Source of the DNA: Vulcanimicrobiales bacterium
GTDB lineage: Bacteria > Vulcanimicrobiota > Vulcanimicrobiia > Vulcanimicrobiales > Vulcanimicrobiaceae
Length of the DNA: 64,000 nt
Assembly: GCA_038215615.1 (NCBI GenBank)
Contig: JBBQQR010000004.1
Coordinates: 73,888-137,887, forward strand
Reading direction: 5' to 3'
Shown: positions 45,029-60,056 of the stretch, in pieces
Layout of the letters: every line of letters starts with the position of its first letter
Position numbering within the stretch: the first letter of the stretch is position 1
Notes under the pieces: generated by a model
Seen by the model: only the letters and a program-made list of their open reading frames with translations
Database searches by the model: none
Told to the model about the DNA's origin: nothing
Program-made: the position numbers and the translations under genes

Positions 45029-45895
45029 TTACTGCGAGAGAGGGACGGTGAAGACGTCGGGCGGGATCGAACGCGGATAGCTGATGCCGTCTAGGGTAAA
45101 GCGCCAGATGCCATGGTGCGTCGATATCCCGAAGAAACGCAGCGTCCCGTCGATTATCCCGTCGGTTAAGGTCCAGTAACCGCCGACGTCGCCAAAGTGC
45201 TGTTCCACTATCCCGTGAAAGCCGAAGGCGTCGCGAACCCCGTAGCGCAGCATGCAGAACTCTTGCGTCTGGACGTTGATGATGACATCGCTGAGCTGAT
45301 GCTGCGGCGCGCGATCGCGCGCGACCAGATGAAGGGCGTGTCCCGGACTGCCGTTCGGGCAGGCCTGGGCCCCGCGCTCCTCCAGTCGGTAGATCGTCGG
45401 ACCCATCACATGTATGGCCGCAATCTGGCGCAGGGACGATGGCTCTTGAGGCACGGGCGTGGCGCCGGCCGAAACTGGCTGCTCGACGTCTTGGTAGTTC
45501 AGCATGCCGTCACGCAAGGCACGATATGTACCATACCATGTCGGATCGAAAAACGAACGGGCGGTAACGTAACGCTTTCCATTCTCGTCGATAATCTCGG
45601 TTGCGTAGTCGTCCGTACGGTGGCGCAGTTGCCACGCACTCGGCCCGCTGCCGCTTCCGATCCCAAGCCAAACGAAATGATTTCTTACGAAAAGTTTCAC
45701 GGGCAGGCCATCGTCTTGCGAATGCAGCGTCGAACTTTCAAATGCCGGCTGCGCACGAGACGACGTTGCCTTCACGGCCGCGAGGTAGAGACTCTCGGCT
45801 GCGGAGGGCGGGTCCGCTTGCGCGCGCGTTGCGGAGATGAAAATAGCCGTTAACAGCAACGCGAACGCAACAAAGACGGCCGGGGTTCTCAGCAT
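45029..45895 (-). CDS. Hypothetical exported protein
   Basis: Signal peptide, 288-aa ORF, no recognised motif. Confidence 0.7.
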   Translation of the reverse strand: MLRTPAVFVAFALLLTAIFISATRAQADPPSAAESLYLAAVKATSSRAQPAFESSTLHSQDDGLPVKLFVRNHFVWLGIGSGSGPSAWQLRHRTDDYATEIIDENGKRYVTARSFFDPTWYGTYRALRDGMLNYQDVEQPVSAGATPVPQEPSSLRQIAAIHVMGPTIYRLEERGAQACPNGSPGHALHLVARDRAPQHQLSDVIINVQTQEFCMLRYGVRDAFGFHGIVEQHFGDVGGYWTLTDGIIDGTLRFFGISTHHGIWRFTLDGISYPRSIPPDVFTVPLSQ

Positions 45896-46027
45896 GTCTC
45901 CAATACGATTGCCGGCTCCGAAATGTTCCGCGAGTTAATGGCCCAGGGGAAAGGAAAGCGCGTCGACTGGCCAGGCACGTTCCGGTTCGTCAAACGTCCT
46001 GTCAAAAGCCGAGATGTATTTGCAATC

Positions 46028-47569
46028 TCAGCGAACGCCGCTCCCGTGCTGACGCTGGAGCGGAAAAAGTAAGACGTCTTTGATGCTCGGCTGATTGGTC
46101 AGCAGCATCACGAGGCGGTCCATCCCGATCCCGATGCCGGCCGTTGGCGGCATGCCGTACTCGAGCGCGCGCACGAAATCCCAATCGGGTTCGGGAATCT
46201 CTTCGTCGCCGGCCGAGCGTTGTTTGATTTGGCTTTCGAAGCGGGCGCGCTGATCATCGGGATCGTTGAGCTCGGTGAAGGCATTACTTATTTCGGCGTT
46301 GGCAATGAACAATTCGTACCGGTCGGTGATCTCGGAATCGTCTTGCCGCCGCTTGGCCAGCGGCGAGATCGCGACCGGGTAGCCGGTCACGAAGGTGGGC
46401 TCGTACAAGTGCGGCTCGGCGACGCGTTCGAAGATCTTGTCAAGCGCGTGCGCGTGCGAGGGCGACTCGGGCAAACCCAGCGCGGTGAGTATCGCCGCCG
46501 CGCCCTTGGGGTCGAGTAATTGCTCGCGCAGTTCCTTTCTTGAGCCTGTCCTGAGCCCCGCCGAAGGGCCATGCTCGCGAATCAGTTCCAAGTACTCGAT
46601 GCGCTTGAACGGACGCTTGAATGAGAGCGTCTTGCCGCCGGCTGGCACTTCGTCTTTGCCGCCCGTCATGACGTCGACCAGATGCGCGATTAGCGCTTCG
46701 TTAAACTCGCGCATGTCGTTGACGTCCCAGTACGCGGCGTACAGTTCGAGCATCGTGAATTCGGGATTGTGAACCGGATCGATGCCTTCGTTGCGGAAGA
46801 TGCGGCCGATCTCGTAAACCCGCTCGAAGCCGCCGACGATCAAGCGCTTGAGATTCAGTTCGGTCGCAATGCGCAACTGCATCATTTGGTCGAGCGCGTT
46901 GACGTGCGTCACGAAGGGGCGCGCGGCCGCGCCGCCGGCGACGTGCAGCAGCGTCGGTGTTTCGACTTCGTAGAAGCCTTGCGCGTCGATGAAGCGTCGC
47001 GTTTCGGCGAGAATCTTGCTGCGTGCGAAAAACACCTCGCGCACTTCGGGATTCACGATCAAATCCACGTAGCGCTGGCGGTAACGCTTCTCAACGTCGG
47101 TCAGCCCATGCCACTTGTCGGGCAGCGGATACATCGCCTTAGCGAGCACGTCGAACTTGAGCACATGCAGCGAGAGCTCGCCTTTTTGCGATCTGAACAT
47201 GTAGCCGTGCACGCCGACGATGTCGCCGATGTCGAGCACCGTCCAATCGGCAAATTTCTCGTCGCCGACTTCGTCGCGGCGCACGTAGAGCTGGAGCTTG
47301 CTGGTGCGGTCCGCGAGATCGGCAAAGGCGGTCTTGCCGTGCGGCCGCTGCGACATCAAGCGGCCGGCGATCGACCAGTTCTCGCTCTCGGCTTTTTCGC
47401 CGGTAGACAGAAAATCGTACTTGGCGAGCAGCTCGCCGGCGTTGGTATCGACGGCGTAACGCGTTTGCGCGAACGGGTCCGCTCCGTGCGAACGCAAAAC
47501 GGCCAGATTTTCACGTCTGGCCGCTACGAGTGCTTCTTCCGTCTTGCCGAGTTCGCGGGAGTCCGTGCT
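46028..47569 (-). CDS. lysS: Lysine--tRNA ligase, class II (true start uncertain; first TTG at 47497)
   Basis: PLPDKWHGL, RYRQRYVDL, GGAAARPF, FRNEG, HNPEFT, YGMPPTAGIGIG, VLLFP. Confidence 0.97.
   Translation of the reverse strand, partial: STDSRELGKTEEALVAARRENLAVLRSHGADPFAQTRYAVDTNAGELLAKYDFLSTGEKAESENWSIAGRLMSQRPHGKTAFADLADRTSKLQLYVRRDEVGDEKFADWTVLDIGDIVGVHGYMFRSQKGELSLHVLKFDVLAKAMYPLPDKWHGLTDVEKRYRQRYVDLIVNPEVREVFFARSKILAETRRFIDAQGFYEVETPTLLHVAGGAAARPFVTHVNALDQMMQLRIATELNLKRLIVGGFERVYEIGRIFRNEGIDPVHNPEFTMLELYAAYWDVNDMREFNEALIAHLVDVMTGGKDEVPAGGKTLSFKRPFKRIEYLELIREHGPSAGLRTGSRKELREQLLDPKGAAAILTALGLPESPSHAHALDKIFERVAEPHLYEPTFVTGYPVAISPLAKRRQDDSEITDRYELFIANAEISNAFTELNDPDDQRARFESQIKQRSAGDEEIPEPDWDFVRALEYGMPPTAGIGIGMDRLVMLLTNQPSIKDVLLFPLQRQHGSGVR
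46541..46568 (-). repeat. Short repeat family copy inside lysS
   Basis: Minus strand CCCTTCGGCGGGGCTCAGGACAGGCTCA, translated PSAGLRTGS. Confidence 0.75.
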
Positions 47570-48082
47570 CTAACTCGCTTTCTTCGCGGCCTTCTTCGCC
47601 GGCGTTCCCCGCCGGATGCTTTCAATCTTGTATTTCACGATGCCCCGCGGCGTGGCCACGTCGACCGTCTCGCCCTTCTTGTGGCCGATGAGCGCGCGTC
47701 CCAACGGGGATTCGTTGCTGATGCGCTGATTCACGGGGTCGGCCTCGGCCGAACCCACGATCCAGAACTCATGGCCGGAGTTCGATTTGACGTCCTTGAC
47801 CTTGACCGTGGCGCCCAGGTGCACTTCGTCGGCCGAATAGTCCGACTCGTCGATCAGACGAGCGTTGCGAACCATCGACTCCAACTTCATGATGCGGCCT
47901 TCGATGAACGCCTGCTCCTGCTTGGCGTCTTCGTACTCCGCGTTTTCACTCAGGTCGCCGAACTCTTTGGCCTGCCGGATCCGGTTATTGACCTCACGGC
48001 GATGAACGCTCTTGAGCTCGTCGAGCTCGTGCTCCATCTTTTCCAGGCCCTCTTTGGTGAGGACGACTTCTTTATCGTTCAT
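47570..48082 (-). CDS. greA: Transcription elongation factor GreA
   Basis: LTKEG, GDLSENAEY, ISNESPLG. Confidence 0.98.
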   Translation of the reverse strand: MNDKEVVLTKEGLEKMEHELDELKSVHRREVNNRIRQAKEFGDLSENAEYEDAKQEQAFIEGRIMKLESMVRNARLIDESDYSADEVHLGATVKVKDVKSNSGHEFWIVGSAEADPVNQRISNESPLGRALIGHKKGETVDVATPRGIVKYKIESIRRGTPAKKAAKKAS

Positions 48083-48142
48083 ACTTCCCCGGCGGCCAGT
48101 GATAAGGAAAGCGCCCCCATGCAGGGCGCCAGCGCCGTTGGT

Positions 48143-49516
48143 TCACCCTGTCCGGGGGGCTCGCCTGCTCATGGCCTTCGACGAGGCCCACCCGCGCCAG
48201 AGCGCCAGCGGAACGCCTACCACTATACCCCCGGCGGCGTATATTTGCGAGGTTCGATCCTCAAAAATTACAGTCGCGCCCAAGACGACCATGAGCGCCA
48301 CCAGGCCGATCCCCGGGATGACCACCCCCGTCCAGCGGAAGGCGGGCTGCGCCCAAAATATCCGTACCGCAGCGGCGGCGCTGGCGGCAAAGAGCAAGCC
48401 TAAGAACAGCGAGCTGCCGTTGACGACGAAATCCAGCTGGGCGCGGGCGCTGGGCGAAAGTCCGGTGAGCAGCTCCACGCCGATCACCAGGAGTGCCGTC
48501 GCTACCAGCGACCAGAACGGCTCTTCGCGCGCGTCGAGCGTGCCGAGCGCGCGCGGCAGCACACGGTCGCGACCCATCGCGAAGATCGAGCGCGAGAGAT
48601 AGAGCAGCGTCGTCCACAAAGCGGAACTGGTCGAAACTAGGACGGTCGTTAGAATGACCGGCCGCCAGAGCGGCGCCCCCAATAAATCCGCCACATAACG
48701 CATCGCGTCCGCCTCATTCGCTTTGAATCCGCCAAGCGTGCCGAGACGGTCGAACGCAAACATTGCCACCGCCAGTGTTGCGGTCGTTAGGAGCAAGCCC
48801 GTTATGCCGCCGCGTCCCGAGGCCGTCGGATCCTTTGCCACTTCTTCGGACGTGGCGGCGGACAGCTCCCAACCATCGCTCATCCAAACGCCCAGCGTCA
48901 TCGCATAGACGAAACCAAAACCGCTAAATGCTAGTGCTTTCACGTCGCTTCCCGACGCCGCGTGCGCGACGGCCGCGTGCGGCGACAGCCACGCGAAAAC
49001 CGCCGCCACCGCAACGACGCCGATCTCGAGCGCTAGCGCGGCGGCGGTAACGATTGCCGTCGGACGCACGCCCGCATAGAGCAGCACCGCACTGCCGGCG
49101 ATCCACGCGGCGCCGACGGCGGCATCCCAGATCGGATTTTGCGCGCGGCCCGGCGCGAGCAGGTCGAGCGTATAAATACCCGCCGGTACCGCCGTCGCCA
49201 GCGTCGCGAAAACATTTGAAAGGATCAGCAACCACGCTCCGTACGCGCCGGCATACGATCCGAACGCCATGCGAATCCACGAATACGACGATCCGGCATC
49301 GGGCGCGACGCGCGAGAGCTGCGCATACCCGATGGCAATGCACAGCATGATCGCGGAAACCGAAAGCAGCGAAAGCGGCGCGAACGTTCCGGCCGCCACG
49401 ATCATCGGTCCCATCGTCGACGCCAGGCTGTAGGCCGGCGCCATCGAGGCCGACGACAGCACCGAAATATCGAAGAACCGCAGGACGCGGGGGAGGTGGC
49501 GTGAGCCCTTCGTCAT
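48143..49516 (-). CDS. APC family amino acid/polyamine permease
   Basis: MAPAYSL, PDAGSSYSW, GWELSAATSEE, R..FAMGRD; about 12 TM segments. Confidence 0.9.
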   Translation of the reverse strand: MTKGSRHLPRVLRFFDISVLSSASMAPAYSLASTMGPMIVAAGTFAPLSLLSVSAIMLCIAIGYAQLSRVAPDAGSSYSWIRMAFGSYAGAYGAWLLILSNVFATLATAVPAGIYTLDLLAPGRAQNPIWDAAVGAAWIAGSAVLLYAGVRPTAIVTAAALALEIGVVAVAAVFAWLSPHAAVAHAASGSDVKALAFSGFGFVYAMTLGVWMSDGWELSAATSEEVAKDPTASGRGGITGLLLTTATLAVAMFAFDRLGTLGGFKANEADAMRYVADLLGAPLWRPVILTTVLVSTSSALWTTLLYLSRSIFAMGRDRVLPRALGTLDAREEPFWSLVATALLVIGVELLTGLSPSARAQLDFVVNGSSLFLGLLFAASAAAAVRIFWAQPAFRWTGVVIPGIGLVALMVVLGATVIFEDRTSQIYAAGGIVVGVPLALWRGWASSKAMSRRAPRTG

Positions 49517-49564
49517 GCGCCCATCGGGCGCTGCTCAGGGTCGTTCGACAAGCTCACGATGACA
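49506..49564 (+). repeat. Composite repeat copy at the junction of two genes
   Basis: CCCTTCG..GCTCAGGG followed by TCGTTCGACAAGCTCACGATGACA. Confidence 0.75.
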
Positions 49565-50462
49565 ATGCAATAACCCGTGGCTTTAGATGCAATTCGTGGA
49601 GCACGCGCTCGTAGTCTTCGGGCGTAACGTCGGCCCACTTCTTCCCAAGCAACGCCAGCAGCGCAGCTTCGACGACGTTGGTTCCAAAGGAGCGCCCTTG
49701 AAAGTCGGGCGTCGTCGTGATGAGCATCTTGACGCCGCGCGTGCGCAGCTCGTCGACGTCTTTCTCCGTCACCGTGTTCGTGAGGACGATTTTTCCGTTC
49801 AAGTCGTCCGGCATGAACTGACGCATGAAATGATAGTCGCCCGCGATAATTTCCGCGTCACGATAATACTGCGGATATTTGGGCTTCGGCGGCTGGTCTT
49901 GCTTCTTGCCGGTCGGATAGAAAAACTGAAACGGGAGTTTGCACGCATCCGGCAGATACTTTTCGGCCATCGCTTCGAACTCGTGCAAGCCTTTGACCGG
50001 CTTGTCGAGATCGAGCGCGAAGATGAAATCGCCGAAGAGCACGTCGGCGCCGGCATCCACGAGCGCCTGGGCCATGCCGAAGCGGTCGAGCGCGCTGACC
50101 ATCAGCACTTTCTTGCCCTTGAGGTCGATGCCGAGTTCTTCTTGCATGAACCGTACCGCTTCACGCTCGAGCGTATTCTTCAGGCCGCTGCCGTCCACGA
50201 CCGGCGTCACCTTTGCAGCTTCGAGCAGACGCAAGCCGTCACGCAGCGCAAACCGGTGCTTGCCGGCGTAGAGATACACATCGATTCCGCCCAGGCCTAT
50301 CGCGTCGACCTTACCGTCCAACTCTTTAACTTTCGCAATTGCTTCGTCGAGCTTGCCATCGGTGCCGACGCGCGAAATCTCAAAATTTTCGCCGAGCAGG
50401 TTTACTTTCGCGCTGTGATCGCGCGCGCTCGATCCGAGCGACACCGAAACGACTTTTTTCAT
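49554..50462 (-). CDS. Conserved protein commonly auto-annotated as quinate 5-dehydrogenase (function unknown)
   Basis: MKKVVSVSLGSS.RD; DAIGLGGID; TPVVDGSGLKNTLE; GRSFGTNVVEA; ATGA overlap. Confidence 0.75.
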   Translation of the reverse strand: MKKVVSVSLGSSARDHSAKVNLLGENFEISRVGTDGKLDEAIAKVKELDGKVDAIGLGGIDVYLYAGKHRFALRDGLRLLEAAKVTPVVDGSGLKNTLEREAVRFMQEELGIDLKGKKVLMVSALDRFGMAQALVDAGADVLFGDFIFALDLDKPVKGLHEFEAMAEKYLPDACKLPFQFFYPTGKKQDQPPKPKYPQYYRDAEIIAGDYHFMRQFMPDDLNGKIVLTNTVTEKDVDELRTRGVKMLITTTPDFQGRSFGTNVVEAALLALLGKKWADVTPEDYERVLHELHLKPRVIALSS

Positions 50463-51592
50463 GCTATTCCTTGGGGCGCCGGACTCGCTCGTCTCAACTC
50501 GGCAGCGTGGCGTATCGCCGCGATTTTTTCCGGAGTAATGGCGGCGTCGAAAGCGCGCATGTCGGCAAGCGTGAAGCCGTCTTTCTCCGCGAGCTGCCCG
50601 ATTTCGATAACCTTGTCGACGTCGATTCCGCGACCGAGCGAGTATGGTTCGAGCCGGTTTTCGAGCGCAAGCACCATCGTCTCGCTCATGCATGCGAGCG
50701 CGGTGCGCGGCGGCAGATTCAAATCGAAGTCTTGGCCGGGTTCGCGTACGCGTTCGAAGCGGGGATTGCCCGGCAGCAGCATGTTACCGCCTTCGACTAC
50801 CAAAACGTCGGCACGTTCTTGCGCGACGCGGCGGCTGACGTCGTGCGGCAGCGACAGCTCGCAGACGACGGCGCCCGTCTGTAAATCTTCGGGCTCGATG
50901 ACGTCTTGCGTGGAGCTGGTCGCGGTCAGAATCAGCTGCCCCTGACGAACGGCCGACGAGAGATCCGTCGTATAAGACGATTCGCACGGTAACTCGCCGG
51001 CAATCGATTCGTGAAATTTCGCCAGCCGCGTATTGTTGCGCGCGACCAGAATCAACCGCTTCACGCGCGGTGCAATCAATTTTGCACAGGCCGACCCAAT
51101 CGAGCCGGTCGCACCGACGACGACGGCGGTCGCTTCCGATGCATCGATCCCCAGCTCGCGCGCGCCGCGAAAGAGGCTGGCGATGCCAGCCCAAATCGTC
51201 AGCGAATTTCCGGTCGTCACCGGAACGGGCGAACGTTCGGCCACCGTGACACCGCCGTCACCCACAACGCCGGTAAATGCACCGAGTCCCGCGATTCCGG
51301 CGCCAAGTTCGGTGCCGATTTCGATCGCGCGCAATATACGCTCGTAGACTTTCTCGCGCGGGAATCCAATGATCTGTTCGGGCAAGAGCGCCGCTGAAAC
51401 GAACCAGCCTTCGGTTTCACGTCCGTCGGGCGTCCGGATGCCCGTGACATGCGCCACGTTCCACGCCGGCATCCATTCCATGATCTTCCGGATGATCGGC
51501 GCGCCCTTGCCCTTCGCACTGGGCTCATAACGCACCACATCTTCCAGCGAGAGCGGGTGGATCACAAAACAAAACTTCGGAGTGTTAACCAT
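50459..51592 (-). CDS. Acyl-ACP/thioester reductase-like protein (AAR / PigE N-domain like)
   Basis: KFCFVIHP, GLGAFT, VTTGNSLT, GATGSIG Rossmann motif, PHDV, EGG, LACMSET. Confidence 0.75.
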   Translation of the reverse strand: MVNTPKFCFVIHPLSLEDVVRYEPSAKGKGAPIIRKIMEWMPAWNVAHVTGIRTPDGRETEGWFVSAALLPEQIIGFPREKVYERILRAIEIGTELGAGIAGLGAFTGVVGDGGVTVAERSPVPVTTGNSLTIWAGIASLFRGARELGIDASEATAVVVGATGSIGSACAKLIAPRVKRLILVARNNTRLAKFHESIAGELPCESSYTTDLSSAVRQGQLILTATSSTQDVIEPEDLQTGAVVCELSLPHDVSRRVAQERADVLVVEGGNMLLPGNPRFERVREPGQDFDLNLPPRTALACMSETMVLALENRLEPYSLGRGIDVDKVIEIGQLAEKDGFTLADMRAFDAAITPEKIAAIRHAAELRRASPAPQGIA

Positions 51593-52025
51593 GGGTTTCG
51601 GCTTCCCGTTTGAGCGCCGCCAGCATCATCTCGCTGTTTTCACGCACTTTACGTTCCAGCGTCGGGCCGATCAGCTCCGCCAGCGTCGGAACGCCGAAAT
51701 CGTAGTCCACGCTCAGCACGACATGCGTTTTGCCATCCTGCCCGGCGAACGTCCAACTGCCTTCGAACTTATCCAGATCGCCTTCGAGCAGTTTGTAATC
51801 GATCCGCAAATTGGCGTCGTCGAAACGATCCTCTTCGGTCCATTCGATGGGCGCTTCTTCGACCAAAGTTTTCCAGCGCGTCAACATATGGTCGGAGTGG
51901 CGTTCGAGGATAGTGACCGATTCGACGTCGGGCATAAACTCCGGAAAACGATCCTGTTGTTTGGCCAATTCATAGACGGCGCGAGCTGGAGCTGCGATCG
52001 CGATCGACGTTTCAACATAAGGCAT
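51585..52025 (-). CDS. SRPBCC/START (aromatase-cyclase, Coq10-like) protein
   Basis: FPEFMPDV..W..WTEED..EGDL..FEGSW. Confidence 0.88.
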   Translation of the reverse strand: MPYVETSIAIAAPARAVYELAKQQDRFPEFMPDVESVTILERHSDHMLTRWKTLVEEAPIEWTEEDRFDDANLRIDYKLLEGDLDKFEGSWTFAGQDGKTHVVLSVDYDFGVPTLAELIGPTLERKVRENSEMMLAALKREAETHG

Positions 52026-52034
52026 GTGCTGCTA

Positions 52035-53324
52035 CTACAGAGCGCCGAGCTTCTCGCGGGCGGTGGACAGCCCTGCCTCGAGAGCTGCCAGCGCTTTATC
52101 GATCTCGGCCTCGGTCACGACGAGCGGCGGTTCGAGCCGAATGACGCGCTGCATGTTCAGCGTCCAAGCGGCCGTGACGCCGTGTTTTAGCATCTCAGGA
52201 ATGATCCAGCCGCCGTAGCCTTCGCTGGTCAGTTCCACGCCGACGAGCAATCCAAGTCCGCGCGCCTCGCGCGCCACACCGGGATATTTGCGGGTCAGCT
52301 CCTGCGCGCCCGAGAGCAACTGCGCACCGCGGACGCGGGCGTTCTCGACGAGGTCTTCTTCAACCAGGGCGTCCATTGCCGCGAGCGCCGCAGCGCACGC
52401 AATTTCGCTGCCGCCGAACGTGGACGTGTGCATGACCGGATGTTTGGCGTACCCCGCGTTCCACACCGGTGTGCGCGCGATGTAGGCGCCCACGGGAATC
52501 ACTCCGCCTGAAAGCCCTTTGGCCAACGTCATGATATCGGGGACGACGCCGTCGCGATCGCAGGCGAACATCGTGCCGCAGCGGCCCAACCCGGTCTGCA
52601 CTTCATCGGCGATGAGCAGCGCGCCCGTCCGGTCGCAGATCTCGCGCACCTCGGCTAAATACCCGGCGGCCGGAACGTTCACGCCCCCCTCTCCCTGCAC
52701 GGGCTCGACGATGAACGCCGCCGCATCGCTCAGCGCGTCTTCCAAACCCACAGTCGAACCATAATCCAGGTGCGCGACGTCTTCGAGCAGCGGCGCGTAC
52801 GTATCTTTGAAATATTCGCGGCCGCTGGCCGAAAGAGAACCGAGCGTCTTGCCGTGAAAGGCATCGCGCGTCGCCACGATCGCCCGGCGCTTGGTGGCCG
52901 CGCGCGCGAGTTTGATCGCGCCTTCCACGGCTTCGGTTCCGCTGTTGCAAAAAAACGAGATTTTCAGATCGCCCGGCGCGAGCTCGGCGAGCCGCTTCGA
53001 CGCGCGCCCGAGCATGATATTGAACATCGTCTTGCCCGAAAGCGCCATCATATCGAGTTGCGCTTTAACCGCGGCTACCACTTTGGGATGCCGGTGCCCA
53101 AGCGTGAAGACGCCGTATCCGCCCGCAAAATCCAAATACGCCTTGCCGTTTTGATCCCAAATCGTGCAGCCTTGCGCGCGCACTTCCACGGGACTGCCCG
53201 ACACTTTCATCACGCGGGCGAGCGTCGGGTTTACGTAGAGTTTGTAATTCTCGTACGTTTCATCGTATAACCCCTCGACTGGGCCACCTGCGGTGTCCTG
53301 CTCGGGGTCGTTCGACAAGCTCAC
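52035..53324 (-). CDS. Class III PLP aminotransferase (putrescine/acetylornithine aminotransferase-like)
   Basis: YLDFAGGYG, NSGTEAVEGA, FHGKT, EPVQGEGG, DEVQTGLGR, AKGLSGG, HTSTFGG. Confidence 0.93.
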   Translation of the reverse strand: MSLSNDPEQDTAGGPVEGLYDETYENYKLYVNPTLARVMKVSGSPVEVRAQGCTIWDQNGKAYLDFAGGYGVFTLGHRHPKVVAAVKAQLDMMALSGKTMFNIMLGRASKRLAELAPGDLKISFFCNSGTEAVEGAIKLARAATKRRAIVATRDAFHGKTLGSLSASGREYFKDTYAPLLEDVAHLDYGSTVGLEDALSDAAAFIVEPVQGEGGVNVPAAGYLAEVREICDRTGALLIADEVQTGLGRCGTMFACDRDGVVPDIMTLAKGLSGGVIPVGAYIARTPVWNAGYAKHPVMHTSTFGGSEIACAAALAAMDALVEEDLVENARVRGAQLLSGAQELTRKYPGVAREARGLGLLVGVELTSEGYGGWIIPEMLKHGVTAAWTLNMQRVIRLEPPLVVTEAEIDKALAALEAGLSTAREKLGAL

Positions 53325-53331
53325 GACGACA
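53298..53331 (+). repeat. 34-bp direct repeat of 49531..49564
   Basis: CTGCTCGGGGTCGTTCGACAAGCTCACGACGACA, 2 mismatches. Confidence 0.85.
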
Positions 53332-53333
53332 TA

Positions 53334-54332
53334 CTAAGCGGCGATGGAACGCTCTAGAGATTCGATGGTTTCCTCGACGACCGCGATGACGTCTTGCGCT
53401 CTATCGAGGCGCATGATTCGTTCGCGCAAAACCGCCGCGCCGGAAATACCCTTCAAGTAGAGCGCAATATGCTTGCGCATCTGCGGGACGGCGCGCGTTT
53501 CGCCAAGTTCTTCGAGCATTGCGCGGTAGTGCACGCCGATGGCGTAGCGCAGGCGATCGGCTGCGGATGGCACGGCTTGCGCCGCGCGGCCTTCCATCAG
53601 ATCGCGGATCTGCGAGATGAGCCACGGGTTGCCGAGCGTGGCGCGACCGAGCATGATCGCGTCCACACCGCTCTCGCGCATGCGATTCATCGCTTCGTGC
53701 GCGTCGGCAAGATCGCCGTTGCCGATCACGGGAATATCCACCGACTGCTTCAAGCGCTTGATGTGCGCCCAGTCGGCGTTGCCTTTATAGAACTGCTTCG
53801 CTGTGCGCGCGTGCAGCGTCAGCGCTTTCACGCCGGCCTTTTGCGCGCGCTGCGCGGCTTCAACGTAGACAAGCTTATCTTCGCTCCAGCCGAGTCGCAT
53901 CTTCATCGTCACCGGACAATCGACGGCTTCAACAACGGCGCGCATGATCGCCTCGCAGCGATCGAGATCGCGCAAGCATGCCGAGCCGCCGTTCGTTTTC
54001 GTGACCTTGGGAGCCGGACAGCCGAAGTTGATGTCCACGATGTCGGCGCCGCACTCGCGTACGATCTTCGCCGCCTTCGCCATCACTGCCGGATCGTCAC
54101 CCCAGAGCTGCGTGCTCACCGGTTTCTCGAGCCCGTGCTGGTCGATCATCTCCATCGTCCGCTTCGCGCTCGACGCATACTGCAGCGCGTTGGCCGAGAC
54201 GAACTCCGTCACCGTCAGGCCCAGGCCGAACGGTTTATACAGTGCGCGCATCGTGCGGTTGGTCACGCCCGACATCGGCGCCAGCACCAGCGGCGGCCAA
54301 ATCTCGTGCGGCCCGACGACCAGAGGCTTCAT
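53334..54332 (-). CDS. dusB: tRNA-dihydrouridine synthase B
   Basis: LAPMSGVT, TEFVS, DINFGCP, KMRLGW, LHART, IGNGD, GNPW, RKH. Confidence 0.95.
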   Translation of the reverse strand: MKPLVVGPHEIWPPLVLAPMSGVTNRTMRALYKPFGLGLTVTEFVSANALQYASSAKRTMEMIDQHGLEKPVSTQLWGDDPAVMAKAAKIVRECGADIVDINFGCPAPKVTKTNGGSACLRDLDRCEAIMRAVVEAVDCPVTMKMRLGWSEDKLVYVEAAQRAQKAGVKALTLHARTAKQFYKGNADWAHIKRLKQSVDIPVIGNGDLADAHEAMNRMRESGVDAIMLGRATLGNPWLISQIRDLMEGRAAQAVPSAADRLRYAIGVHYRAMLEELGETRAVPQMRKHIALYLKGISGAAVLRERIMRLDRAQDVIAVVEETIESLERSIAA

Positions 54333-54373
54333 AGCGACCGTATTCTAGCACCCCTTGCGCTTCCCGGCTATTC

Positions 54374-55084
54374 TCAGCGTTTTCTTGCCCATATCCAGAC
54401 GTTTTCGCCGAGTGCCGGATGACGTATCGCCGCGAATCTGAATAGCAACACGCTCGGCAGTTGCAACAAAAGCCGTTCAGGCCACGGCGTCGGCAAGAAA
54501 TATGGCGCATCCCACAAGCCGTCGTAACGCACGTCTTGAACATCGAACCCGCACGCATCGAGCAGTTTTTCGAAGTACGGCGGCTCTTGGACATTGCAGT
54601 GCGTTTCGTCGCGATACGCGAACCATCGCTGCCCCTTAAGTCGCCGGCCAACCGAGCGCGTGTTGGGCGTGGAAAGAATAAAAATACCGCCCTGCCGCAG
54701 GCGTGCGGAAATCTTCTGCAGCAGCGCGCGATCATCGGCAACGTGTTCGATCACATCGAAGAGCGTCACACCATCGAACTGCACGTCCGCAAACGGCAAA
54801 GCCCCGTCCGGATCCATTCGCTCCAATGCAATTCCGGGATTCCGCTGCGCGGTCAGCCTGAGCGCTTCCTCGCTCACGTCACATCCGCGGCGGTTTGGAA
54901 AGTCGGAAATGTCTTCCAGAAACTGCCCCGTGCCGCAGCCGACATCCAGGATCGCGGCGCTCGTGGAAAGTTCCCGTCTCAGCTTCGCTGGCACGTAGCC
55001 CTTCGATCCGAAAAGTTTTCCATAGAGATTCCGCCGGCGCGGCGCGAAATAGTCACGCCCATACAGATCCGGACCTCCGCTCAC
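54374..55084 (-). CDS. Class I SAM-dependent methyltransferase
   Basis: ILDVGCGTG, GCDVS, FDVIEH, LSTPN; GTGA overlap with upstream gene. Confidence 0.9.
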   Translation of the reverse strand: MSGGPDLYGRDYFAPRRRNLYGKLFGSKGYVPAKLRRELSTSAAILDVGCGTGQFLEDISDFPNRRGCDVSEEALRLTAQRNPGIALERMDPDGALPFADVQFDGVTLFDVIEHVADDRALLQKISARLRQGGIFILSTPNTRSVGRRLKGQRWFAYRDETHCNVQEPPYFEKLLDACGFDVQDVRYDGLWDAPYFLPTPWPERLLLQLPSVLLFRFAAIRHPALGENVWIWARKR

Positions 55085-57216
55085 AGCGGGCTTGCGCCGG
55101 CCAACTTCGCTACTTCATGAAGCGCGTAGAGCATCCACACTGTTTGCTCACCGTTGCCCGGTCCGTTGAACACATTTGAGTTCGGGGGCGGAACGTTTAC
55201 TTGCGATGCCTCGAAGACCCGCGGCTCGTGATTGAGCTGCTGCTCGTCCTGAACAAACGCCAGCGTCTGCTCGACCTGTCTCCAATCGCCCTTCTGGGCG
55301 AAGAACAACATCTGCCAGGCAAGGACCTTGCCCGACGTGATCGGCGCCGGATCGATGTCGGCGGTAAACCCGATGCTGATGACGCGATGCCCGTTCCAGA
55401 CAAAACTCCCGTACCGCATCAATGCCGCGATGGTTTGATCGTAGATCTTCGGGTCTGTGCCTTCCCAGCCGGCGGCGGTCGGGCCGAAACTAAATTCTGA
55501 AAGTCCCGGATAGATCTGCGTCATGTTTTTGTCTTCGAACATTTCCGCATAGACGCTGTGCCCATCCAGTTTCCACGTCATGCGGCGCGCTATGGCGCGC
55601 TCAAGGGTAGTCTTGTCATTCTCCCATCGCATTGCGTGCGCGGCATCGCCCCGTGACCTTGCCACGCGGATCATCTCGCGCAGCGACTGAGCAACAAAAG
55701 ACTGCGTAAAACTATCGTACGTGTCCCAAAACCGTTCTTCGCGATAATGCTCGAGATGCAAATTTCGCACCAGACCGAAACTCGGCGTGAAATACGGCTG
55801 GGCCATCGTTGCATCCATGAGCGCGGCGACTTGGCCGTACGTCGAGTTGACGAATGACGGCGCGTTTGCGGCGCGTGCGTAGAGCGCCCATGCCAGAATC
55901 ACGCCGGATTGCCCGTCCATTTGGTCGGTCATCTCAGGCGCTCCGGAGGTGAGCACGTAATGCGGAACCCGCGCTTGTCCTGCCTGCTTGGTCGCGTTGA
56001 GCGTGTATTGAAGAACATCTTGAGCTCGTTCAAAGTCGCCCGTAATCAGCCACAACTTGACCAGCGCAGCGCCGGTGCGCGCGAAGTAACTCGGCGCGTA
56101 CGCGTTCGTGAGCGACTCCAAGAAAAACCCCGGCGGGTGACTTCCGCCTTGTCGAGATTGAACGTCCTTATAATTGAAAGAATAAAAATTTCGCCACCAC
56201 TCCGACTCGAGCTCACCTTTCACAGCGGCCCGATCCGCGGAAGAGGACGGGGATGAAGCAGCACCTGGCGGTTTGGGCGCCGGACCGCTTACCGGAAAGT
56301 CATCAACGTAGGTATAGGACCCGGCAGCGTAATCGTACGGCATCGACGCCACGATGAATGCAACCTCGTTGTTGGGATTCAGCGCGACCGCAGGCGGCTG
56401 CAGCAATCTTCCCGAGATGGGTTGCCAAACCGGAATCGTCTTGCCGCGCGAATCAAATCGCGAGAACCACACCTCGTTGTTGCCTCCCCGGACGAAGGCG
56501 AAGAGCCTGTTTCCGTTAGGATCAAAGATGAGCGCCGGTGCGGAGACGGTGTTCCCCGATATGTTGGCAAACGTTTTATGAACCGAGCCGTCGGCGTTTA
56601 ACGTCCCAAACCAGAGCGTGTCGTTCGACGAGCGCACCAACACCTGTATCTCTTGCAACGAGGAATCCCACGCCGCGGCCGGCGACGACGGCGTCGTCCC
56701 CGGCACCGAAGTCCAGTCCTTGGAGAAACTTCCGTCCGAGTTGAGCGTTGCAAACCACAGCCGGTTATCCGCCGAACGGCCGAGGATGTCGATTTTCTTT
56801 GAGACCGGATTCCACACCAAGGCCGGCGGCGACGCCAGAATCCCGGAGAGCTCCTTCCAGTTCTCATACACACTGCCGTCGCTATTCAGCGCGGCGAACC
56901 AAAGATTGTTATCGGGAGAGAGCACGAGGATGTCGATCTTGTGAAGCACCGGATCCCACACGAGTGCCGGGGGCAGCGGCCGGCTGCCGGCGATGTTGAT
57001 GAACGGCTGAGTGATGACCTTATTGTGATCGACCGCGGCAAACCACAATTCGCCGCTCGAACCGGCGACAACCACGTAGACCTTGTTGGTATCCGGACTC
57101 CAAACCGCCGCCGGAGCTGAGAGAGTTCGGCCGCTCAGTACCGTCCATTTCGCCAGAACGGTGCCGGGCGTTACACACAATACGCACAACAAGAGGGCAG
57201 CCGGTAAGAACCGCAC
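55081..57216 (-). CDS. Exported protein: lectin-like beta-propeller repeats + putative six-hairpin glycosidase domain
   Basis: Signal peptide; about six ~48-aa repeats (SG..PA.VW.P..DN.LWF..L.SDGS); helical C-domain with QMDGQ and EERFWDTY. Confidence 0.6.
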   Translation of the reverse strand: MRFLPAALLLCVLCVTPGTVLAKWTVLSGRTLSAPAAVWSPDTNKVYVVVAGSSGELWFAAVDHNKVITQPFINIAGSRPLPPALVWDPVLHKIDILVLSPDNNLWFAALNSDGSVYENWKELSGILASPPALVWNPVSKKIDILGRSADNRLWFATLNSDGSFSKDWTSVPGTTPSSPAAAWDSSLQEIQVLVRSSNDTLWFGTLNADGSVHKTFANISGNTVSAPALIFDPNGNRLFAFVRGGNNEVWFSRFDSRGKTIPVWQPISGRLLQPPAVALNPNNEVAFIVASMPYDYAAGSYTYVDDFPVSGPAPKPPGAASSPSSSADRAAVKGELESEWWRNFYSFNYKDVQSRQGGSHPPGFFLESLTNAYAPSYFARTGAALVKLWLITGDFERAQDVLQYTLNATKQAGQARVPHYVLTSGAPEMTDQMDGQSGVILAWALYARAANAPSFVNSTYGQVAALMDATMAQPYFTPSFGLVRNLHLEHYREERFWDTYDSFTQSFVAQSLREMIRVARSRGDAAHAMRWENDKTTLERAIARRMTWKLDGHSVYAEMFEDKNMTQIYPGLSEFSFGPTAAGWEGTDPKIYDQTIAALMRYGSFVWNGHRVISIGFTADIDPAPITSGKVLAWQMLFFAQKGDWRQVEQTLAFVQDEQQLNHEPRVFEASQVNVPPPNSNVFNGPGNGEQTVWMLYALHEVAKLAGASPL

Positions 57217-57220
57217 GCGC

Positions 57221-57988
57221 CTATTTTCCGGAATGAAATCGACGCAAGCCGTACAGACTCAAGTGCGGATTCACCGCGTGGATGATCTTGGTGTGACGCG
57301 CAACCACTTCTGCCATTCCGCCCGTCGCGACGACCTTCGCGTCGGTACCGAGTTCCGCTCGGATGCGAGCGACCAGCGCCTCTGTTTGGCCGACAAAACC
57401 GTAAACGATTCCCGACTGCAGCGCGGAGATCGTATCCGTCCCGAGCGCTTTGCCGGGAGCTTCCAGCGCGATCTGCGGGAGTTTCGCCGTACGTTCCACC
57501 AGCGCGTCGATGGAAATGCCGATGCCGGGGGCGATCGCGACGCCGAGATAGAGCCCTTGCGGATCGATGGCCATGAACACCGTTGCGGTACCATAGCTAA
57601 TCACGATGAGCGGCGCGCCGTACAGTTCTTGCGCGCCGATCGCCGCCGCAACCAGATCCGCTCCGACTTCGCCCGGGCGATCCGTACCGATGCGCATGAG
57701 CGTTTGCCGGTGCGCTTTGAAAAAGACCGGCAGGCTGTTGAAATAGCGCGAGCACGCTTCTTCCAGCGTTTGATCGAGATTGGGAACGACGCTCGCAACC
57801 ACGATCGCGTCGACGTCCGCCGGACGGAGCGGAGTGGTTCCGAAGAGCTGCACAAAAAGCGCGCCGAGTTCGTCGGCCGTGCGTTTGGGGTCGGTGCGAA
57901 TACGCCAAGCCTGCACGAGCTCCGGTTGCCCGGCCGCGAAACAGCCGAGCTTGGTTTCAGTATTGCCGACGTCAACCGTTAATAACAA
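57221..57988 (-). CDS. coaX: Type III pantothenate kinase
   Basis: LTVDVGNT, ASVVP, VGAD, GTAT, IAPG, ATGG. Confidence 0.95.
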   Translation of the reverse strand: MLLTVDVGNTETKLGCFAAGQPELVQAWRIRTDPKRTADELGALFVQLFGTTPLRPADVDAIVVASVVPNLDQTLEEACSRYFNSLPVFFKAHRQTLMRIGTDRPGEVGADLVAAAIGAQELYGAPLIVISYGTATVFMAIDPQGLYLGVAIAPGIGISIDALVERTAKLPQIALEAPGKALGTDTISALQSGIVYGFVGQTEALVARIRAELGTDAKVVATGGMAEVVARHTKIIHAVNPHLSLYGLRRFHSGK

Positions 57989-58007: not shown

Positions 58008-59225
58008 CTACGCACCGGAGTCCTGAGCGGGGTCGAAGGGAACATCGTTCAGAATGCAATCGAGCAGCCTGGCGGCCAAAACCTCTTTCGAAGCGGCCCC
58101 TAGGTCGCGCCGGCCATCGTTTCCCCACAACACGGTCAATGCGTTATTTTGCGCGCCGAAGCCGCGCCCGCCCGCAACGTCGTTCACGACGATCGCGTCG
58201 AGATGTTTACGCGTCATCTTTTCGCGCGCGTTGGTTTCATGATTCTCCGTTTCGGCGGCGAATCCGATAACGATCCCGCGGTGCTTTTCACGACCGATCG
58301 CCGCAAGCACGTCAGGCGTGCGCACCATGCGCACGTCGAGATCGCCTTCGCCCTTTTTCGTCTTTTGCGGTGACGAGGTCTCCGGACGCCAATCGGAGAC
58401 GGCGGCGGTTGCGATGATCAGATCCGCGCTCTTAGCCGGCCCGACCGCCGCAGCGTACATGTCCTGCGCCGAGACGACGTCGAGAACTTCCACACCCGCG
58501 GGCGCCGCCAGATGCGTCGGGCCAAGAATGAGCGTCACCTCCGCGCCACGCAGCACGGCTTCGCGCGCGAGCGCAATGCCGGTCGCGCCCGTTGACGGAT
58601 TGCTGACGAATCGAACGGGATCGAAGGCTTCGCGCGTGGGCCCGCCCGTGATCAGCACGCGCTTTCCTTTCAACGATTGGGTGCGCGTAAGAATCGTTTC
58701 CAGCGCTTGCAAGATCGCATCCTCGGATGCGAGGCGGCCGATGCCGGTCTCGCGTTCCGCCAAAAAACCGCTCTCGGGTTCGGCGAATTCGTAGCCGCGC
58801 TCGCGCAGCGTGCGCAGATTGGCTTGCGTCGCCGGATCGTTGTACATTGCGTCGTTCATTGCCGGCGCGATCAGTACCGGGATGCGGGCCGCGAGCAGCG
58901 CGCTCGTCACCAAGTCATCAGCGATACCTTGCACGAGCTTTGCGATGACGTCAGCTGTAGCCGGCGCAACGATCGCAACCTGCGCTTCGCGCACCAGGCG
59001 GATGTGCGGAATCGACTCGGGCGCGTCCCAAAGCGACGTATAGACTTGGCGGCCGGTCAATGCAGCGAAGGTCAGCGGACCGACGAATTCTTCAGCTGCC
59101 GCGGTCATGGCGACGTCAACGATAGCCCCCCGCTGCACTAACGCGCTGGTCAATGCCGCGGATTTATAGGCGGCGATGCCGCCGGTGATGCAGAGCAGAA
59201 TGCGCTTGCCGGAAAAAGCGCTCAT
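58008..59225 (-). CDS. coaBC: Phosphopantothenoylcysteine decarboxylase/ligase
   Basis: TGGIAAYK, APATA, PAMN, GPTRE..DPVRF, AAVSD, GFAAET. Confidence 0.97.
   Translation of the reverse strand: MSAFSGKRILLCITGGIAAYKSAALTSALVQRGAIVDVAMTAAAEEFVGPLTFAALTGRQVYTSLWDAPESIPHIRLVREAQVAIVAPATADVIAKLVQGIADDLVTSALLAARIPVLIAPAMNDAMYNDPATQANLRTLRERGYEFAEPESGFLAERETGIGRLASEDAILQALETILTRTQSLKGKRVLITGGPTREAFDPVRFVSNPSTGATGIALAREAVLRGAEVTLILGPTHLAAPAGVEVLDVVSAQDMYAAAVGPAKSADLIIATAAVSDWRPETSSPQKTKKGEGDLDVRMVRTPDVLAAIGREKHRGIVIGFAAETENHETNAREKMTRKHLDAIVVNDVAGGRGFGAQNNALTVLWGNDGRRDLGAASKEVLAARLLDCILNDVPFDPAQDSGA
58020..58040 (-). repeat. Short repeat family copy at the 3' end of coaBC
   Basis: Minus strand CCCTTCGACCCCGCTCAGGAC, translated PFDPAQD. 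Confidence 0.75.
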
Positions 59226-60049
59226 GGCCGGATCCAAAGGTTATCGAGCAGGCGCGTGCGCCCAAAGCGCGCCGCGCCGATCAGGAAAGCCGGCGCGCGA
59301 AGCGCTTGCAGGCGCGAAAACGTGCGCGCGTCGACCAGGTTGAGGTACTCCAAACGCGCGCGCGGGCTCAAGACGCCGGCCGCCGCTTCGCGAGCCTCCT
59401 CGACGGTTTTTCCGGCCCGGATCTCTTTGAGCATCGTCTGCAACGCTGCGTATAACGTCGGCGCCGCGGCGCGTTCTTCCCCGGAGAGATAGGCGTTGCG
59501 GCTCGACATCGCGAGGCCGTCGGGTTCGCGAACGGTCTCGACGATCTCCACGCGCGTGGTGAAGTTCAAATCCTCGACGAGTTTCGTCAGAACCGCAGCC
59601 TGCTGTGCATCCTTCTGTCCCAAGAAGAGCACGTCCGGCCGCACGATGTTGAGCAGTTTCGCCACGACCGTCGCCACGCCGCGAAAGTGCGCCGGACGCG
59701 CCGCGCCTTCGAAGCGCGTGCCGAGCTTGCCGACGTCAACGAACGTCGTGAAATCCGGCGGATAAATCACGTCTTTCTCCGGCGCGAAGAGCACATCGAC
59801 ACCGGCCCGGGCGAGCTTATCGGTGTCGCTCTCCAAGTCGCGCGGATAGCGTTCGAAGTCTTCTTGCGGTCCAAACTGCATCGGGTTGACGAACAAGCTC
59901 ACCGCAACCGACGTACACGAACCGCGCGCCGCTTCGACCAGCCGCAAGTGTCCGGCGTGCAGCGCGCCCATCGTTGGAACGAAGCCGAGCGGCCGCGTGA
60001 GTTTTTCGAGCTCGGCGCGCACGGGTGCCAGCTCGCTTTCAACCTTCAT
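59222..60049 (-). CDS. panC: Pantoate--beta-alanine ligase
   Basis: VPTMGALHAGH, FVNPMQF, YPR, HFRGVATVV, GQKDAQQ, SSRN, RLLDN. Confidence 0.97.
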   Translation of the reverse strand: MKVESELAPVRAELEKLTRPLGFVPTMGALHAGHLRLVEAARGSCTSVAVSLFVNPMQFGPQEDFERYPRDLESDTDKLARAGVDVLFAPEKDVIYPPDFTTFVDVGKLGTRFEGAARPAHFRGVATVVAKLLNIVRPDVLFLGQKDAQQAAVLTKLVEDLNFTTRVEIVETVREPDGLAMSSRNAYLSGEERAAAPTLYAALQTMLKEIRAGKTVEEAREAAAGVLSPRARLEYLNLVDARTFSRLQALRAPAFLIGAARFGRTRLLDNLWIRP

Positions 60050-60056
60050 CTTCAAG

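Follow-up and report, generated by a model that had tools for sequence, protein, structure and literature searches.

A conserved gene pair and a split reductase-aminotransferase module as candidate alkylamine lipid genes in the Eremiobacterota

The window analyzed here, a 64,000-nt stretch of DNA from an uncultured Vulcanimicrobiales bacterium of soil, carries on its minus strand four tightly linked genes that are good candidates for the genes behind the alkylamine chain of certain membrane lipids in Deinococcus, Thermus, and some Firmicutes. In the direction of transcription, they encode a class III (omega-type) aminotransferase (AT; 52035-53324, 429 amino acids, with a GTG start); a small SRPBCC/START-fold protein (SRPBCC; 51585-52025, 146 amino acids); a predicted NAD(P)H-dependent acyl-thioester reductase of the type found in cyanobacterial acyl-ACP reductase (AAR) and the N-terminal part of PigE (RED; 50459-51592, 377 amino acids); and a 302-amino-acid protein of no described family, which carries the NCBI label “quinate 5-dehydrogenase” (P4; 49554-50462). 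P4 and RED form the conserved core of this set, with AT and the lipid carrier split off, dispersed, or fused in other genomes. For the product, the best available hypothesis is a long-chain alkylamine for lipids of the N-glyceroyl-alkylamine type, to which we give a probability of about one half. A sequence-only reading of this DNA had already picked out the four linked open reading frames (ORFs), with the motifs KFCFVIHP, TTGN, GATGSIG, and ACMSE in the reductase; all four motifs are present in the RED translation.

In the scheme proposed here, the cluster would be a housekeeping, split version of the thioester-reductase/transaminase module of PigE and TamH. Cys301 of RED would accept the acyl group of a phosphopantetheine thioester, for which a fatty acyl-ACP (acyl carrier protein) of fatty acid synthesis is the likeliest candidate, and RED would reduce it with NAD(P)H to the aldehyde; AT would then convert the aldehyde to a primary amine, with an amino acid as donor. 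SRPBCC, or SCP2 in some Firmicutes, may hold the water-insoluble aldehyde or amine. P4 would work with RED, perhaps by docking or regulating the acyl carrier, perhaps by taking the next step, for example to an N-glyceroyl amide. The alkylamine itself would most likely end up in a membrane lipid of the N-glyceroyl-alkylamine phosphoglycolipid type, as in Deinococcus, Thermus, and some Bacillota. The analysis establishes the families of RED and AT, their conserved catalytic residues, and the linkage, fusions, and distribution of the genes; the length of the chain, ACP as its carrier, the parts played by SRPBCC and P4, and the lipid as end product are inferred.

RED belongs where its motifs had placed it in the sequence-only reading, with AAR and the reductase domains of PigE and TamH. 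It matches the NCBIfam model for PigE (NF053554) with an E-value of 1e-63 and 216 bits, residues 35-364 falling on positions 36-357 of the 837 in the model, and the model for AAR (TIGR04058) with an E-value of 3.1e-27 over residues 52-341, at 95.8 bits against an equivalog cut-off of 449.7. Among PDB entries, PigE (4ppm) is matched at 4.1e-39 and AAR (6jzq) at 1.4e-18. Cys301 of RED aligns on the catalytic cysteine of both (C294 in SeAAR and C296 in PigE, as numbered in PMC9594044 and PMC8341465) and is predicted to be the acyl-enzyme nucleophile. It is also one of ten residues that never vary in a diverse set of 29 RED sequences reaching down to 38% identity: F9, H12, P13, T126, G128, G160, G163, G166, C301, and E304, where the three glycines from 160 to 166 are those of the GxxGxxG nucleotide-binding loop, GATGSIG in RED.

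The only Pfam match of RED is to PF01488, in its Rossmann part (residues 150-258, 36.6 bits), which explains the “shikimate dehydrogenase” labels found on RED homologues in the databases. Models for shikimate and quinate dehydrogenases are absent from the 25 best NCBIfam matches of RED, and its match to glutamyl-tRNA reductase (GluTR; TIGR01035) reaches 4.5e-7 and 29.2 bits, against a cut-off of 209.55, and covers residues 151-258 only. By comparison with family models and structures, then, the product of 50459-51592 groups with AAR and PigE, which supports its membership in the family of AAR, PigE-N, and the TamH thioester reductase rather than among the shikimate or amino-acid dehydrogenases.

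AT is a class III aminotransferase (PF00202, 2e-101; 340.1 bits against a gathering threshold of 30.5), and its residues 20-368 match positions 376-730 of the PigE model, the transaminase half, at 8.2e-122, bearing out the kinship proposed for it. Its match to the putrescine aminotransferase model NF008570 is stronger (1e-127, 426.5 bits), although below the cut-off of 612, and that to TIGR03372 (364.5 bits) is likewise below its cut-off of 658.65. The PDB matches run in the same order, with a putrescine aminotransferase (4uox) at 1.9e-101 and PigE (4ppm) at 2.5e-87. The enzymological reading of RED and AT as a thioester reductase and an aldehyde transaminase is well supported.

The third protein, SRPBCC, matches PF03364 (3.5e-21; 76.2 bits against 23.4) and PF10604 (4.1e-13; 50.3 bits against 27.4). 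Its nearest solved structure is TTHA0849 of Thermus thermophilus (2d4r, 2.8e-22), with which it is collinear and gapless over residues 1-140 of both; an alkylamine is part of the major phospholipid of T. thermophilus. SRPBCC probably binds a hydrophobic ligand.

P4 had been described from the sequence as similar to quinate 5-dehydrogenase, and here the sequence-only reading has to be revised. No Pfam or NCBIfam model matches P4 at E-values up to 0.01, PF01488 included, and there is no meaningful match to a PDB sequence. An AlphaFold (AF2) model built from 56 sequences (predicted local distance difference test, pLDDT, 96; predicted template modeling score, pTM, 0.92) has as its best structural match, taken over its full length, AAR (6jzq_D; VIA-align Z 14.6, root-mean-square deviation 4.2 over 248 residues), followed by the AAR-like terminal amidation domain (TAD) of the carmabin pathway (Z 14.3), and then by glutamate dehydrogenases at about 10.9. 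Alignments of the P4 and RED families show no profile similarity in hhalign, so the relation of P4 to AAR is one of structure.

Twelve residues are invariant in the 56 P4 sequences (S8, G10, R31, G33, G58, G59, G91, R127, D145, G208, D209, and N262), and no cysteine is found among their invariant or near-invariant columns. Judging from motifs and secondary structure, SAxDRxGMA may stand in place of the glycine loop, and the invariant Asn262, at the start of a helix (GTNVxEA), may replace the RED cysteine (ACMSET). As modeled, P4 is a paralogue of AAR fold that has no glycine loop and seems to have lost the catalytic cysteine as well. Conservation of so many polar residues speaks for a protein that binds a ligand or catalyzes a reaction, not for a dead scaffold.

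The name under which P4 is filed in the databases, quinate 5-dehydrogenase, is a mislabel. Of 20 GC-rich or longer representatives looked up in search of Deinococcota members, two had informative names, both this one, and both from Clostridia/Firmicutes. The family comprises 971 representatives at 50% clustering (E-values up to 1e-3), with at least 598 loci among GTDB species genomes; on plasmids, a tblastn search found no member. P4 is better conserved than RED between Eremiobacterota and Bacillota (about 55% and 43% identity, respectively).

The length of P4 is itself a matter of some choice, as the longest frame (49554-50693) runs into RED. Among the 120 matches listed, the homologues are 300-309 amino acids long and cover 95-100% of a 302-residue query; because the 302-residue form fits them in length and coverage, the start is probably the ATG at 50462 (MKKVVSVSLG...). 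The stop of RED and this start then overlap as ATGA (4 nt). Consistent with this, RED ORFs extend 4 nt beyond the start of P4 in many related loci.

The closest homologues of RED and P4, at up to 96% identity, are in metagenome-assembled genomes (MAGs) named as Candidatus Rubrimentiphilum, Baltobacteraceae, Vulcanimicrobiaceae, and Eremiobacteraeota; the host is a member of the Eremiobacterota (Vulcanimicrobiota), not of Deinococcus-Thermus. Within this phylum the two genes are nearly universal. P4 is present in 120 of 121 sampled genomes, including all 61 of the 61 genera, and RED in 118 of the 121, including all of the 91 high-quality genomes, nearly always side by side, an arrangement that is not due to chance.

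A second sample consisted of 81 genomes, at least 90% complete, from the Bacillota-type phylum to which a Desulfofundulus genome (G003) belongs. P4 was found in 62 of these and RED in 47: both in 47, P4 only in 15, RED only in none, and neither in 19. Three of the 15 P4-only genomes have a diverged RED beside P4, and six have a RED domain elsewhere, within frames of 874-1080 amino acids; the three of these frames that were checked are AT-RED fusions in the order of TamH. Counting diverged and embedded forms, RED is thus in at least 56 of the 81 genomes.

P4 and RED also occur in one polypeptide. Five of the best 150 P4 representatives are longer than 650 amino acids, and four of these (P0266, P0310, P0368, and P0389) are P4-RED fusions. 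The model of one of them, P0266 (687 amino acids), is compact and has two modules (pLDDT 92.7, pTM 0.80), which offers weak support for a defined interface between P4 and RED. Prediction of a complex between the separate proteins gave a score of 0.01 against a mark of 0.32, a result that bears neither way on binding. The fifth long protein, P0318 (762 amino acids), joins a C-terminal P4 domain to an alpha-oxoamine synthase resembling BioF, Kbl, and serine palmitoyltransferase; by its sequence, the synthase would be another type of enzyme that uses acyl thioesters and is coupled to P4.

The wider set was followed in the 79 best loci around P4 (tblastn, E-values up to 1e-8, with one segment of at least half the query), counting genes within 7 kb. 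All of AT, SRPBCC, and RED accompany P4 in 34 of them; RED alone in 12; RED and SRPBCC in two, both cut by contig ends; SRPBCC alone in one; an AT-RED fusion in one (L078); and none of the three in 29. SRPBCC is therefore in 37 of the 79. Five of the 29 loci with P4 alone were followed further, and in all five genomes RED is elsewhere: in the four of Peptococcaceae type, it sits in the order dusB-(helix-turn-helix gene)-RED-greA-lysS. All five also encode an AT orthologue at 43-49% identity, standing out from paralogues (1e-93 to 1e-115, against 1e-70 to 1e-79) and, in four of the five, adjoining ylxM-ffh.

SRPBCC was found in just one of these five genomes. In three loci, from Pelotomaculum, Desulfofundulus, and Desulfovirgula (L042, L052, and L053), P4 is detached from RED, adjoins cell-wall and sporulation genes, and is followed by a sterol-carrier-like SCP2 gene and then by an APC permease gene; SRPBCC was not found in these three genomes. 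The scarcity of SRPBCC suggests that SCP2 stands in for it; the lipid-binding companions of P4 and RED are thus of two kinds. As a unit of four, then, the genes do co-occur widely, as the sequence-only reading requires, but the part that is conserved is P4 with RED, and AT and the lipid binder are sometimes elsewhere or fused.

The neighbors named in that reading, dusB on one side and greA and lysS on the other, are old companions as well. Around P4 in the 79 loci, dusB is found in 32 (upstream), greA in 49, and lysS in 42 (both downstream), in several phyla, and in some Bacillota the order is simply dusB-P4-greA-lysS. We read dusB-greA-lysS as an ancient string in which the P4/RED pair is embedded, and not as evidence for an RNA-related function. 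Further pathway genes, for glycerate, glycosyl, or phosphatidyl transfer, were looked for in 14 extra loci, next to dispersed AT, RED, and P4 genes and to AT-RED fusions, and none were found; the neighbors there are housekeeping or unrelated genes (ylxM-ffh-rpsP, helix-turn-helix proteins, cell-wall enzymes, and miaA).

Some variants of the set were seen in passing. Two Eremiobacterota loci (L012:4498-5844 and L013:4531-5877) have a 448-amino-acid methyltransferase-like gene (Methyltransf_9/23) between SRPBCC and RED. Two MAGs labeled as Actinomycetota have two tandem copies of P4, 49-57% identical to that of the window, preceding RED in one (L029) and AT-SRPBCC-RED in the other (L033). The plasmid matches of RED in tblastn are all to genes of a fused, PigE-like type, from Ralstonia, Leisingera, and Pseudoalteromonas, among others. 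These fused genes, annotated merely as aminotransferases, are on 144 plasmid records, 128 of them from Ralstonia (e.g., CP022773.1, a Ralstonia solanacearum megaplasmid).

Among characterized systems, the two on which the sequence-only reading drew are the most instructive, and its account of their chemistry agrees with the descriptions in PMC8341465 and PMC9594044. PigE, of the MAP branch of prodigiosin synthesis in Serratia, acts first as a thioester reductase, and its C-terminal domain then transaminates the resulting aldehyde (described in PMC8341465). Like the genes of the window, it combines an AAR-like thioester reductase bearing an active-site cysteine with a class III aminotransferase, taking an aldehyde to an amine, and both RED and AT match its model best or second best. 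Unlike them, it is a single polypeptide of 837-861 amino acids, with the reductase first, in a pigment cluster; in the window RED and AT are separate genes with SRPBCC between them, accompanied by P4 in a housekeeping setting, and their scores are below the PigE equivalog cut-off of 850 bits.

PtTamH, from the pathway to tambjamine YP1 in Pseudoalteromonas tunicata, is described as a transaminase fused to an AAR-type reductase, making a C12 amine from an acyl group bound to the ACP of TamA and refusing acyl-CoA (PMC9594044). Going by this description of a long-chain primary amine as product, it is the closest functional analogy, and its order, AT then RED, recurs as fusions in relatives of the window genes (L078 and L123-L125). 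It differs in being fused, in working with the adenylation-ACP protein TamA, and in feeding an alkaloid; no TamA-like gene is present among the scanned neighbors of the cluster.

AAR itself is comparable to RED in fold, GxxGxxG loop, and catalytic cysteine and, by analogy, would be so in its thioester-to-aldehyde chemistry. To P4 it is the best structural match, yet P4 is without sequence-level similarity to it, without the glycine loop, and apparently without the cysteine. The carmabin TAD (PDB 9e4s-9e56) resembles P4 in being an AAR-fold domain, so that this fold also occurs in chemistry proposed to form amides, according to the preprint describing it (bioRxiv 10.1101/2024.10.28.620694). By the same description, TAD has an invariant cysteine and binds NAD, neither of which is apparent in P4, and sits at the ends of modules of non-ribosomal peptide synthetases (NRPS).

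The host genome is 2.21 Mb, rated 100% complete, and carries a single copy each of RED and P4. It has seven class III aminotransferase genes, AT included, and a true hemA (C21:24797-26056; 396.7 bits, 6.4e-119) adjoining one of them, so that neither arginine nor heme synthesis depends on the cluster. A CDP-alcohol phosphatidyltransferase (PF01066) was not found anywhere in this genome, and the usual routes to phosphatidylglycerol (PG), phosphatidylserine, phosphatidylethanolamine (PE), and cardiolipin therefore seem to be missing. Of 14 control genomes, Deinococcus radiodurans is the only one likewise without it. Elsewhere in the phylum, PF01066 is present in 24 of 51 sampled genomes, and in the host's own family there is a match, a marginal one, in just one of 14 other genomes.

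These distributions are where the link to alkylamine lipids begins. The AAR model responds in three of the 14 control genomes: Synechococcus, above the cut-off and with a true AAR, T. thermophilus, and D. radiodurans. The ESM Atlas has three P4-like clusters (scores 0.97-0.98), in which Vulcanimicrobiota, Deinococcota, and Bacillota are the phyla most often represented; this is a lead that comes with no alignment. Alkylamine lipids are reportedly dominant in several Bacillota, to go by the title of Bale et al. 2025, which may bear on the point; no paper assigning genes to alkylamine lipids was found in full-text searches. The phosphoglycolipid of Thermus carries an alkylamine, and the enzymes forming this third chain are given as unidentified, as of 2022, in PMC9636437; Moorella thermoacetica is reported to contain N-glyceroyl alkylamines (PMC13274423). 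In the description of the only cultured member of the host phylum, the polar lipids and glycolipids are all listed as unidentified (PMC9758169).

Phyletic evidence of this kind makes the lipid link suggestive, if indirect. A more specific version of it would have these as the genes for the alkylamine chain, P4 as a new AAR-fold family acting after amine formation (e.g., in making the N-glyceroyl amide), and the membranes of the host's class, which like D. radiodurans would have no CDP-alcohol phosphatidyltransferase, as mainly amine-based instead of built on PG, PE, and cardiolipin; we put this forward tentatively, as a reading less likely than not.

Several observations weigh against a long-chain alkylamine lipid as the end product. 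With its score far below the AAR cut-off, RED is no closer to proven fatty acyl-ACP reductases than to PigE, whose substrate is described as a branched keto-thioester, 3-acetyl-octanoyl thioester (PMC8341465). AT scores highest against putrescine aminotransferase, which leaves room for a small polar amine. TTHA0849 is still hypothetical in a 2026 review, which gives its crystal cavity as about 18 cubic angstroms (PMC13525633), a poor fit for a long chain unless the protein opens. In six of the 81 Bacillota-type genomes, P4 is present and RED was not found, so that P4 may have a function of its own.

On the lipid side, the absence of PF01066 is no general correlate, since T. thermophilus and all five Bacillota and Armatimonadota genomes tested carry it. 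The connection to Deinococcota consists of responses to the AAR model, one PDB match, and the Atlas lead, and is itself a lead. No alkylamine lipid reported for Eremiobacterota was found in the literature. Finally, the constant neighborhood of dusB, greA, and lysS could point to an unrelated housekeeping role.

Some alternatives keep the chemistry and change its product. The module might make a small polar amine, with RED acting on a short or functionalized acyl thioester, AT aminating the aldehyde, and an APC permease moving product or precursor; a special case would be PanD-independent synthesis of the beta-alanine needed for pantothenate and CoA, from a malonyl-thioester by way of malonate semialdehyde. 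This would fit the putrescine aminotransferases that are the best family and PDB matches of AT, and the APC permeases that follow P4 in three unrelated settings (a permease of the window's type in five of the 79 loci, and permeases unrelated to it directly after P4 in L022 and after SCP2 in L042, L052, and L053). For the special case, panD (PF02261) was not found anywhere in the complete host genome, despite the presence of panC and coaBC (about 5 kb upstream of the cluster and in the same direction), and coaX precedes dusB-RED in one locus (L091). However, of five other genomes encoding RED and P4, four have panD, as do Thermus and Deinococcus, both of which also respond to the AAR model, so the core pair is no substitute for it. 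The putrescine aminotransferase score of AT is well below the cut-off (426.5 against 612 bits), two different lipid-binding proteins accompany the genes, and the closest characterized reductases, as described in PMC8341465 and PMC9594044, all use hydrophobic acyl chains; a small amine is on balance unlikely. Alternatively, RED and P4 might be a conserved unit making a fatty aldehyde, or an alcohol derived from it, for ether-type, wax, or other lipids, with AT as a lineage-specific addition. True AAR is described as handing its aldehyde to a partner other than a transaminase, in the AAR-ADO pair (PMC8341465); in 12 of the 79 loci RED adjoins P4 and neither AT nor SRPBCC lies within 7 kb, and the order dusB-P4-RED-greA-lysS occurs without AT. 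Against this stand the AT orthologue, which ranks above paralogues in all five genomes where it lies away from RED and P4, the fusion of RED to AT in L078 and in at least three checked genomes, and the closeness of RED to the PigE reductase domain rather than to AAR (216 against 96 bits), and we give an aldehyde as end product slightly less credence than a small amine.

Other alternatives change the setting. That P4 and RED serve RNA or translation housekeeping, for example by reducing an aminoacyl-tRNA ester in the manner of GluTR and then transaminating the product, is suggested by the flanking dusB, greA, and lysS genes, by the weak match of RED to GluTR (4.5e-7), and by the use of GluTR as second-best template for the PigE N-domain (as stated in PMC8341465). 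That match does not go beyond the Rossmann part of RED, the Peptococcaceae-type genomes have P4 and AT at other sites, and the dusB-greA-lysS string is conserved in these phyla with or without the insert, so that the neighborhood may be historical; such a role seems very unlikely. The idea of a GluTR-like step toward 5-aminolevulinate (ALA) was rejected, as a genuine hemA (6.4e-119) and its neighboring class III aminotransferase gene are elsewhere in the host genome. A secondary-metabolite module like those for prodigiosin and tambjamine could be imagined, PigE being the best family match of both enzymes and plasmids of Ralstonia, Pseudoalteromonas, and others carrying fused homologues, but the scores are far below the PigE cut-off, and these are single-copy core genes of a whole phylum, here in a 2.2-Mb genome. 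As the sequence-only reading had noted of pyrrole and polyketide synthase (PKS) genes, none are nearby: no pyrrole, PKS, NRPS, or adenylation genes are present among the scanned neighbors of the cluster. A pigment-type pathway is hardly credible. A long-chain alkylamine for membrane lipids remains the hypothesis that we prefer.

At the locus itself, the four genes are part of a co-directional minus-strand string that spans at least 57216 to 46028. The spacing is tight throughout, with 9 nt from the dusB stop to the AT start, 9 nt from the AT stop to the SRPBCC start, and an 8-nt overlap of SRPBCC and RED. Upstream of AT are dusB (53334-54332; TIGR00737, 1e-104), a class I S-adenosylmethionine (SAM) methyltransferase gene immediately upstream of it (54374-55084), and a gene for a 711-amino-acid protein of no clear family, with faint matches to propeller repeats only (55081-57216), which overlaps the methyltransferase gene by 4 nt. 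Farther upstream are coaBC (58008-59237) and panC (59222-60055). Downstream are greA (47570-48082) and lysS (46028-47497), both named by tblastn matches to homologous loci; all of these genes are on the minus strand. The placement of the cluster between dusB and greA-lysS is therefore correct as to its flanks, but an APC-family permease gene that had gone unmentioned (48143-49516, minus strand, 457 amino acids; PF13520, 4.9e-21) separates P4 from greA. It is a possible accessory whose membership in the cluster is uncertain.

A consensus scan of 45800-57600 found no promoter-like sites, and terminator-like sites over the same region are not above the expectation from shuffled sequence. The 60 nt that separate the permease stop from the greA start contain a GC-rich hairpin (48110-48130, minus strand; eight pairs, six being G-C).

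A 34-nt direct repeat brackets exactly the four-gene block, its two copies identical at 32 of 34 positions. Copy A (53298-53331) lies over the AT start codon and the first nine AT codons, and copy B (49531-49564) over the P4 stop and the spacer before the permease; a 14-codon ORF begins in copy B, and the stop of this ORF overlaps the ATG of the permease. Three examined genomes of the same genus do not have the repeat; in these, the alignable part of AT begins only at residue 15-19, and P4 stops at residue 300. Either a rearrangement specific to this strain or an artifact of assembly could account for the repeat.

What is new here is the true phylum of the host, the nature of P4, the recognition of P4 and RED as a conserved core, and the absence of PF01066 that the host has in common with D. 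radiodurans. Alkylamines form the third hydrophobic chain of major phospholipids in Deinococcus and Thermus, and the set of RED, AT, a lipid-binding protein, and P4 would make the question of their genes testable in these tractable organisms. If the proposal is true, it would define a new protein family in P4, provide natural stand-alone enzymes for producing fatty amines from fatty acids, and offer a starting point for identifying the membrane lipids of the Eremiobacterota, an abundant soil phylum.

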